Under the pieces are notes generated by a model. The model had not been told where the DNA came from, did no database searches, and worked only from the letters and a program-made list of their open reading frames with translations. A DNA stretch of 64,000 nucleotides from Saccostrea cucullata. Taxonomy: Eukaryota. Numbering within the stretch: position 1 is the first letter of the stretch; each line of letters opens with the position of its first letter. The DNA lies in contig NW_026921914.1 of the NCBI RefSeq assembly GCF_032062105.1, forward strand, positions 1-64,000, in the 5' to 3' direction. The position numbers were made by a program, and so were the translations under genes. This document shows positions 43,303 to 44,060 of this stretch, one piece after another.

Positions 43303-43373
43303 TGATACTATGCTTACAGTTCATAACAGATATTATTAACCTGTAATGCATATTTTTTTTTATATGTTTGTAG

Positions 43374-44060
43374 ATGGCAAAGACAAAAGTTACTCCAGGG
43401 AAATGTCGTAAATGCCCCATGTGCACCTACATGGCAAGAACGGAAGAGGACTACAAAAGCCATGTTGTACAGTGCGCTATGAGAACATTTAACTGCACCT
43501 TTTGCAGTTACTCAAGCAATAAGGAGATAAATGTCAAGAGACATGAGAAAAGAGCCCACCTTGGCCTGATTGAGGAGCCCATCAAGCTTGATGGTAGGCC
43601 CGATGAGAGAAGAGAGGCAACTTGTAATGAAAGTGTTGAAAAAGACGAAGAGGAATCAGGGAAAGAGTGGCTTAAGCAAGACTATGGGGACGTTATTGGC
43701 ACTCTGTCTACTGATAGTAGTGATAATGAAGAAGAGGCAAAAGATTCCCCATCACAGAAAGAGGAAAAAGCCATTAACGATAAGCTGTTGGAGGGTAGAG
43801 TCGTAAGGAAACAAACAGCACCCACCAAACCCCACATTCCAAAAACGAAGATTCCTCAATCCACTAGTAAACCAGAAGTTGAAGGTACTCAAGAATCCAA
43901 ATGTGAGAGTTGTAAGAGGAAGAGATTCATGGTGGACATTGGAACCCAGACTGAGGCGGGTGAGAAGACCATCATGAGGTCTACCAAGCGGGTCAAAAGA
44001 TTTCGTGAGGGTGACATTGACATTGAAGAAGTAGTTGAGGAGAAGACTGAACTTCGCTGA
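43374..44060 (+). CDS. Retrotransposon accessory ORF3: two zinc fingers (C2HC + C2H2), acidic linker, basic NLS-like motif, TQT motif
   Basis: CPMC-x12-H-x3-C and CTFC-x12-H-x4-H; KRKR; DIGTQTE; ATG directly preceded by branch point, pyrimidine tract and AG; lies between pol stop and PPT. Confidence 0.85.
   Translation: MAKTKVTPGKCRKCPMCTYMARTEEDYKSHVVQCAMRTFNCTFCSYSSNKEINVKRHEKRAHLGLIEEPIKLDGRPDERREATCNESVEKDEEESGKEWLKQDYGDVIGTLSTDSSDNEEEAKDSPSQKEEKAINDKLLEGRVVRKQTAPTKPHIPKTKIPQSTSKPEVEGTQESKCESCKRKRFMVDIGTQTEAGEKTIMRSTKRVKRFREGDIDIEEVVEEKTELR

Follow-up and report, generated by a model that had tools for sequence, protein, structure and literature searches.

Genes carried in addition to gag and pol are known from several LTR elements. 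Both env and foamy-virus Tas are located between pol and the 3' LTR and are expressed by splicing, and Tas uses an internal promoter. To our knowledge, animal transposons are thought mostly to evade silencing rather than to oppose it, and only a small number of animal elements are known to encode a protein that counters silencing. Influenza NS1 is a viral histone mimic. Several described systems resemble the gene reported herein, ORF2 of a bivalve retrotransposon. First, CERV of the C. elegans Ty3/Gypsy element Cer1 is also an accessory, spliced, Cys-containing, multimeric nuclear protein (PMC10309623); as described, it shares sequence with Gag and forms rings via its M domain, whereas ORF2 is a stand-alone gene behind pol, encoding C2HC and C2H2 fingers, a histone-H3-like tail and a TQT motif. 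Second, errantivirus env and the MDG1-group sORF1/sORF2 are likewise extra genes in Ty3/Gypsy genomes (10.1101/2025.03.14.642691), and ORF2, unlike env, is without a membrane segment or signal peptide. Third, VANC of Arabidopsis DNA transposons (PMC12859917) shares with ORF2 that it is element-encoded, fast-evolving, family-specific and a proposed anti-silencing factor; however, it is an unrelated protein of plant DNA transposons, and anti-silencing has been shown for VANC, whereas we infer it for ORF2. Fourth, ASCIZ/ATMIN also combines zinc fingers with a disordered region containing LC8-bound TQT motifs, a likeness in layout; ASCIZ/ATMIN is a host gene with many motifs, and ORF2 has only two fingers, between one and three motifs, and in addition the H3-like tail. 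Fifth, in SARS-CoV-2 ORF8 a parasite carries a histone-like motif directed against chromatin factors of its host; the viral mimics ORF8 and NS1 carry short internal or C-terminal motifs in exogenous viruses, whereas ORF2 carries an N-terminal 9-mer in a transposon zinc-finger protein. Finally, PAF15 (VRTK; PMC7060239) and VRK1 (PRVK; PMC9898751) have, like the ORF2 tail, a small residue 1 (A, V, P) after Met removal, Lys at 4 and a position fixed at the N-terminus. They keep Arg2, whereas the main ORF2 clade has K or N there and keeps T6, R8 and K9; among ORF2 families, Arg2 is present only in that of locus L089. Both accessory genes in LTR elements and histone mimics in viruses are known kinds, and their combination in a bivalve-wide clade appears to be new. 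No description of ORF2 or of a transposon-borne histone mimic was found in full-text searches of the literature; Repbase, subscription papers and supplements lie outside this scope and may mention the ORF. The passages considered in PMC13524379, PMC12440569, PMC10309623, PMC6338049, PMC12859917 and 10.1101/2025.03.14.642691 make no mention of ORF2, and the term "ORF" does not occur in the main text of PMC6238403.

In the present study, we analysed a 64,000-nucleotide stretch of Saccostrea cucullata DNA (contig NW_026921914.1, positions 1 to 64,000), hereafter the window. The element hosting ORF2 is a young Ty3/Gypsy (Metaviridae) LTR retrotransposon, with Gag-PR-RT-RH-IN in this order within LTRs that are 99.6% identical, a primer-binding site (PBS), a polypurine tract (PPT) and a short target duplication. 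Its features are as follows.

37546-37549 and 44931-44934: target-site duplication CAAT, 4 bp; 4-bp duplications also occur in other copies
37550..38252, forward strand: 5' LTR (TG...CA), 3 mismatches in 702 aligned bases against the 3' LTR
37631..37640, forward strand: TATA-like box about 80 nt into the LTR, recognised from its sequence
37696..37704, forward strand: putative splice donor within R, its GT at 37699-37700, 68 nt past the TATA
38215..38223, forward strand: alternative candidate donor in U5 (GT at 38218-38219)
38259..38276, forward strand: primer-binding site, presumably of the tRNA-Leu type
38371..43302, forward strand: gag-pol in one ORF of 1643 aa (Gag, CCHC knuckle, PR, RT, RNase H, integrase)
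43336..43373, forward strand: branch-point-like TTAAC (43336-43340), pyrimidine tract and AG acceptor abutting the ATG
43374..44060, forward strand: accessory ORF2, 228 aa, 71 nt past the gag-pol stop (43302)
43377..43403, forward strand: H3-like N-terminal tail, residues 2-10, in this copy 5/9 identical to host H3, in register
43413..43475, forward strand: finger 1, C2HC type, C14-x2-C17-x12-H30-x3-C34
43494..43559, forward strand: finger 2, C2H2 type, C41-x2-C44-x12-H57-x4-H62, with a recognition helix that varies by family
43668..43688, forward strand: acidic tryptophan motif (W99, D103) in a disordered region, 25/30 clusters
43806..43823, forward strand: R-K-x-T-x-P motif, residues 145-150, 24/30 clusters
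43932..43955, forward strand: LC8/DYNLL-type TQT motif, residues 187-194
43971..44054, forward strand: C-terminal beta-hairpin predicted by AlphaFold2, residues 200-227
44193..44209, forward strand: conserved short hairpin/palindrome directly before the PPT, with compensatory changes
44214..44227, forward strand: polypurine tract
44228..44930, forward strand: 3' LTR, with final base G against A in the 5' LTR

An earlier note on this DNA had described an intact 228-aa frame between pol and the PPT with two zinc fingers (CPMC-x12-H-x3-C and CTFC-x12-H-x4-H) and an acidic middle. Frame and fingers lie where it placed them, both above chance, and residues 85-135 contain 17 D/E against 6 K/R. The name "ORF3" was wrong; gag and pol form one 1643-aa frame, and the gene is therefore ORF2. 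The ATTAAA reported at about 44146 is present at 44146-44151, before the 3' LTR, but its reading as a separate poly(A) signal was not borne out, as AATAAA/ATTAAA occurred 50-110 nt before the 3' LTR in 8/18 families against 6.1 in shuffles (P=0.19). Similarly, CESCKRKR is found at residues 177-184, but not as a conserved functional motif, the C-x2-C-K pattern occurring in the C-terminal part of 1/30 clusters. The note had missed the LC8 motif and the likeness of the N-terminus to H3, which are the features that tell most about the protein.

ORF2 is an element gene under purifying selection, as 58 of 60 loci carry it behind gag/pol, pooled pN/pS is 0.36 and named relatives occur in other bivalves. 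At least 118 matches were obtained in its own genome. Pol was upstream in all 30 automatic loci (three pairs overlap); 60 further 10-kb loci were fetched across the match ranking and then grouped into 19 families, with gag/pol on the same strand upstream of ORF2 in 58. The remaining two, L082 and L088, are longer multi-finger frames that match ORF2 in the fingers only. This is at odds with the outcome named in the earlier note as refuting it, homologues confined to host genes and absent from other copies of the element. Within families, dN/dS was 0.22-0.74 (14 estimable pairs of 19), and the pooled pN/pS (one pair from each of 10 families, Fisher p 1.5e-19, against 0.17 for integrase) is not near 1, the dN/dS value that the earlier note had named as refuting; by region, it was 0.30 in the tail (very few changes), 0.27 in the fingers and 0.39 in the rest. 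ORF2 is kept between families that are about 30% identical, across about 30 divergent clusters and three bivalve host families, namely oysters, scallops and a pearl oyster. The 29 named relatives looked up belong to Saccostrea, Ostrea, Crassostrea/Magallana, Argopecten, Mizuhopecten, Pecten and Pinctada, and the closest (99% identical) is annotated to Saccostrea cucullata. DNA context from outside this genome comes from one record, L133, which is 99% identical to a scallop protein and shows gag, pol, acceptor, ORF and PPT. In a quick-search integrase tree (47/50 rows; L137-L139, too short, were omitted), 18 family representatives and one outside record formed one clade (SH-aLRT 99), and the L089 family branched immediately next to this clade. 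Downstream of Pfam-picked integrases, a full ORF2 was found in 0/30 at a cut-off of 15 bits, with a weak finger signal in three and with fetched flanks that, for the long-tailed integrases L140, L164 and L166, did not reach far enough to show whether a second ORF is lacking. Four close family pairs were mutual nearest neighbours by both ORF2 and integrase, and the overall distance correlation was weak (rho 0.16, 365/5000 permutations as high). Relatives of the protein in viral contigs were not found.

Several members are named "RE1-silencing transcription factor-like" by NCBI. A REST orthologue was rejected, since ORF2 has two fingers and is multi-copy inside elements, whereas REST is a long, multi-finger, single-copy host gene; this corrects the annotation of such ORFs, which oyster genomes list as "REST-like" genes of the host. 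The earlier note had left captured or element-derived origin side by side: the gene travels with the element, and recent host capture is not indicated, as no host source gene was found.

AlphaFold2 gave two confident fingers, disorder at residues 73-135 and a C-terminal hairpin (mean pLDDT 65, pTM 0.30), with conserved ligands, a beta-beta-alpha fold and pLDDT of about 90 over residues 11-60. In an alignment of 35 sequences (23% mean identity), M1, K5, T7, five zinc ligands and P150 are invariant, and W99, D103, R145, T148 and Q192 nearly so. The acidic tryptophan motif is a candidate activation or protein-binding motif, and R-K-x-T-x-P is taken by us to resemble a 14-3-3 phospho-site or NLS. 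Finger-2 helices differ in 28/29 clusters, and a TGEKP linker occurs in 0/30, so a classical Kruppel DNA-binding array is not indicated and the pattern fits family-specific binding or a non-DNA ligand. Foldseek against the PDB returned only finger pairs, nothing at E <=0.001, the fold matches being DNA-binding C2H2 pairs (best E 0.002). In the ESM Atlas, the whole protein matched C2H2 clusters that were generic or had no name, and residues 90-228 had no usable match. A DNA site for the fingers was not identified; the pre-PPT palindrome is disfavoured as such a site, being constant while finger helices vary. Finger 1 presumably resembles NEMO/optineurin-type (NEMO/UBZ) ubiquitin-binding fingers; that family is absent among the best 25 of 58 Pfam families, and TAX1BP1 fingers match at E of about 1 only. 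The non-env character claimed earlier holds: no 19-residue hydrophobic window exceeds 1.6 in 30/30 clusters (maximum 1.32, and 0.28 in the window copy), and an env or fusogen was rejected. The ORF2 protein is likely a nuclear regulator, as the earlier note had inferred.

The pre-PPT hairpin (6 bp; alignment A4) is present in 17/17 aligned families with pairing in 100/102 cells, and a similar hairpin occurs in L133. It is a candidate packaging, dimerisation or protein-binding signal.

The N-terminus resembles that of histone H3, an idea that arose after viewing the alignment. The host H3 sequence was read from the genome, and tails were counted over 30 clusters at 50% identity (162 proteins; one, without Met, was omitted, and the L089 family lies outside the pattern). 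Equivalents of H3 T3, K4, T6, R8 and K9 are kept in 25, 28, 28, 18 and 18 of 30 clusters, that of A1 in 5/30, and those of R2, Q5 and A7 in 0/30; the Arg2 position is K in 15 clusters and N in 12, and Pro replaces Ala7 in 20/30. These counts describe one conserved ancestral feature rather than 30 independent events, because the clusters are related. K5 and T7 of the tail are as invariant as the zinc ligands. In 159/159 counted proteins, residue 2 is one of A, V, P, T and G, each of which allows removal of the initiator Met. The distance from Met to the first Cys ranges from 8 to 23, and the motif is therefore tied to the terminus. Mean identity to H3 1-9 is 4.07/9 at register 0, against 2.7 at the next-best of 33 other registers and a mean of 1.29 in shuffled tails (maximum 2.03 in 20,000), and gag N-termini have 0-3. 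With a matrix of the tail family, the H3 1-9 tail probability is 3e-4, its score is reached by 52/223,751 windows in long proteins, and four linker histone H1 windows outscore it. A 20-column profile searched blind against 177,635 PDB sequences gave six matches at E <=10, five of them on cysteines; the sole match in the tail region aligned H3 1-12 with columns 1-12 of the profile, at an E of 4.5 that by itself is not significant. The closest H3 match is in the L089 family, whose first finger is C2H2 and whose ten N-terminal residues include 8 identical to H3, or 9 in one copy, Arg among them.

The zRxK motif of N-terminal H3 mimics requires Arg2 (PMC9898751), and the R3A substitution in PAF15 abolishes UHRF1 binding (PMC7060239). 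The main clade has the small residue 1 and the N-terminal Lys4 (28/30 clusters), and Arg at position 2 is found in 0/30 clusters and only in the L089 family; since the known terminal mimics need Arg2, the main clade is not classed with them. In contrast, H3 R2 points to solvent in DNMT3L and BHC80 complexes (PMC2685098), and because these structures leave R2 in solvent, silencing-linked K4me0 readers of the DNMT3L/BHC80 type would be the best-fitting partners. One partial ADD-domain match in the genome is the sole evidence for a host reader.

The C-terminal part of the protein contains a putative LC8-binding motif. Residues 187-194 match the published motif in the anchor, Asp at -4 and Glu at +2 (PMC6607443), with no Pro before the anchor and in a disordered stretch, as in LC8 clients. 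The form [TV]QT occurs in this part in 25/30 clusters against 3.05 in shuffles (maximum 10), and a looser form in 30/30, often repeated. A 2:2 model with host LC8 scored 0.83 against 0.01 for the best control, with an interface at 185-194, contact agreement between runs of at least 93% and partner pLDDT of at least 61; the mark used was reached by 51/78 solved against 2/108 mismatched pairs, and in eukaryotes by 39/65 against 2/126. This model shows likeness rather than binding, and it may be reproducing similar LC8-peptide complexes that are already solved; many TQT peptides fail to bind LC8 (PMC6607443). The Drosophila piRNA silencing complex is dimerised by LC8 (PMC7861614), and competition for LC8 with host piRNA silencing is a further, speculative angle.

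The ORF2 protein is likely translated from an RNA spliced from an LTR donor to the acceptor behind pol. In the window copy, TAG follows a T-rich tract immediately 5' of the ATG. The acceptor proposed in the earlier note was upheld by comparison: a pyrimidine tract with YAG precedes the ORF2 ATG in 19/19 families, against 36/1217 other ATGs (3%) and 0.93 families in shuffles (YAG <=15 nt from the ATG, >=10/14 pyrimidines before it, thresholds set after viewing sequences). Support from reads was not obtained: no read or contig from 4/24 listed RNA runs shows a junction and raw-read depth on ORF2 is zero; two poly(A) runs gave 14 and 8 reads, none on ORF2, one contig from an RNA run spans the acceptor unspliced, and the X2 record is a single 6,723-base contig covering the whole element, which may be DNA. 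A donor scoring >=6 lies 60-110 nt past the LTR TATA in 11/18 families, against 3.4 in shuffles (maximum 10) and 1-5 families in other windows, with an approximate matrix and a range picked after looking. The strongest support is independent and comes from two sister lineages, in which a two-finger exon behind pol is without ATG and a start fits only via LTR-donor splicing. The top-scoring LTR donor of L168 and L169 is preceded, at a distance of 8 nt, by an ATG in the phase that the exon needs; that of L167 has AT as its last two bases and G is the first base of the exon, and joining them would create a start codon. These exons (on the element strand, L167 from 6193, L168 from 5752 and L169 from 5743 onward) have two C2H2 fingers and terminal QT motifs and are without an H3-like tail, their homology to the main ORF2 being weak (7-9.5 bits). 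In the window copy, the R-region donor is preceded at 28 nt by an ATG in another frame, so the U5 donor may be used instead. As the candidate donor precedes the PBS, the spliced RNA could presumably not be primed for reverse transcription. In L083, L089, L103-L112 and L133, the accessory ORF is in frame with integrase and keeps its acceptor and ATG, so fused and free forms are both possible. The internally deleted copies L051, L052 and L072 keep gag, protease and most of ORF2 and are without RT, RNase H, integrase and the H3-like tail (LTR identity of L051 and L052, 99.1-99.6%); they were rejected as copies of spliced RNA, since the junction lies inside ORF2 and not at the acceptor, and are deletions.

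Herein, we propose a tentative explanation for these features, to which we give a little under an even chance: the ORF2 protein, made from an early spliced RNA and paired by LC8, might act in the nucleus as an anti-silencing factor or transactivator and engage readers of H3K4me0. First, splicing would very probably remove U5, the PBS and gag-pol, and the protein would gain its own N-terminus. Second, the initiator Met would be removed, residue 2 being always small, leaving a free tail like H3 residue 1. Third, LC8 would probably pair two chains, giving four fingers and two tails, and the fingers would put this dimer on the LTR of the element or on chromatin. Fourth, the tail would be bound as H3, a step slightly better than even; the likeliest partners are proteins that read unmethylated K4 without contacting Arg2, which stays in solvent, such as the DNMT3 ADD domain or BHC80 of the LSD1 complex. 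The tail would then compete K4me0 readers off the locus, the acidic tryptophan motif may recruit activators, and the element promoter would stay active against host silencing. The narrower proposal, that the LC8-dimerised finger protein of this bivalve clade, made from its own spliced RNA, is an H3 tail mimic disarming H3K4me0-reading silencers at the element promoter, is more doubtful and not quite an even prospect. As to direction, the effect may be activation or repression, activation being the one proposed here. If the tail is a mimic, histone mimicry reaches from viruses to transposons, and ORF2 would be a transposon-encoded histone mimic and an animal counterpart of the plant VANC anti-silencing system, neither of which was found in the literature searched. 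ORF2 offers short and inexpensive handles for testing: the tail of 9 residues, the LC8 motif of 8 residues and the splice junction predicted above.

Several other explanations were considered. The one that survives best, although unlikely, is an RNA factor similar to Rev or CERV: the spliced product would bind unspliced element RNA, perhaps at the pre-PPT hairpin, and promote its export or limit its splicing, with the basic tail serving import or RNA binding. Export of RNA that still contains its intron is a necessity for any element whose donor and acceptor are strong, and Cer1 achieves it via the spliced, Cys-rich, multimeric, phospho-regulated CERV (PMC10309623); the finger linkers are non-canonical, and double changes are present at 4/6 pairs of the hairpin found in all 17 aligned families. 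However, the fixed H3 register at the terminus is left unexplained, the hairpin is constant while finger-2 helices differ and is present in spliced and unspliced RNA alike, and no leucine-rich export signal stands out by eye in the alignment.

A plain transactivator resembling Tas or ASCIZ is rather unlikely. The fingers would bind the LTR, LC8 would dimerise the protein and the acidic tryptophan motif would activate, while the N-terminus would be a basic, CDK-regulated T-P-x-K arm like that of histone H1, its H3 likeness incidental. Consistent with this, Pro follows T7 in 20/30 clusters, H1 windows outscore H3, Arg2 is absent, the layout of fingers, disorder and TQT resembles ASCIZ and the fold matches are DNA-binding C2H2 pairs. 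The tail itself argues otherwise: T7 is kept where Pro is not (10/30), T4 and K5 are kept, residue 2 is always small and the motif is anchored at the terminus, none of which a CDK site or an NLS requires; shuffling the same residues cuts the H3 match from 4.07 to 1.29.

The SNAG domain needs Arg2 and a bulky residue at position 4. A self-limiting repressor, in which an H3-mimic, SNAG-like tail recruits LSD1/CoREST or similar to the element's own LTR and restrains its expression or copy number, would share the anatomy of SNAG proteins, a free H3-like N-terminus with C2H2 fingers. BHC80 binding is Arg2-independent (PMC2685098), LC8 serves silencing complexes too (PMC7861614), and almost no element RNA was present in the two poly(A) runs. 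This reading is nevertheless improbable: Lys is kept at position 4, unlike in SNAG, the acidic tryptophan motif appears more like an activation motif, and many families are young and multi-copy (LTR pairs >=99%).

A cytoplasmic adaptor, linking Gag or the integration complex to dynein via LC8 or tethering integrase to chromatin, would accord with the often repeated TQT motifs and with the ORF in frame with integrase in one family and L133; it is very improbable, as LC8 mostly dimerises its clients (PMC6607443) and the fused forms keep the acceptor and internal ATG, so that a free form seems required. A recently captured, functionless host passenger, suggested by the REST-like database names, is scarcely credible given the purifying selection, the retention of ORF2 across divergent families in three bivalve host families, and the two loci without gag/pol, which match in fingers only.

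Several minor observations were also made. One family member, P0179, is filed in a bacterial symbiont genome on a 1.9-kb contig and is likely host DNA carried into the symbiont assembly. L031 shares its immediate flanks with the window, as L032 does with L034; because these flanks are identical within pairs, each pair probably represents allelic or duplicated contigs rather than separate insertions. In L058 and L087, elements are repeated in tandem, head to tail, every 6.7 kb or so. Upstream of the element, at 34008-36100 of the window, two direct repeats of about 620 bp, 95-99% alike, flank a 209-aa gag fragment on the minus strand, a structure that reads from its sequence as a small non-autonomous or deleted LTR element.
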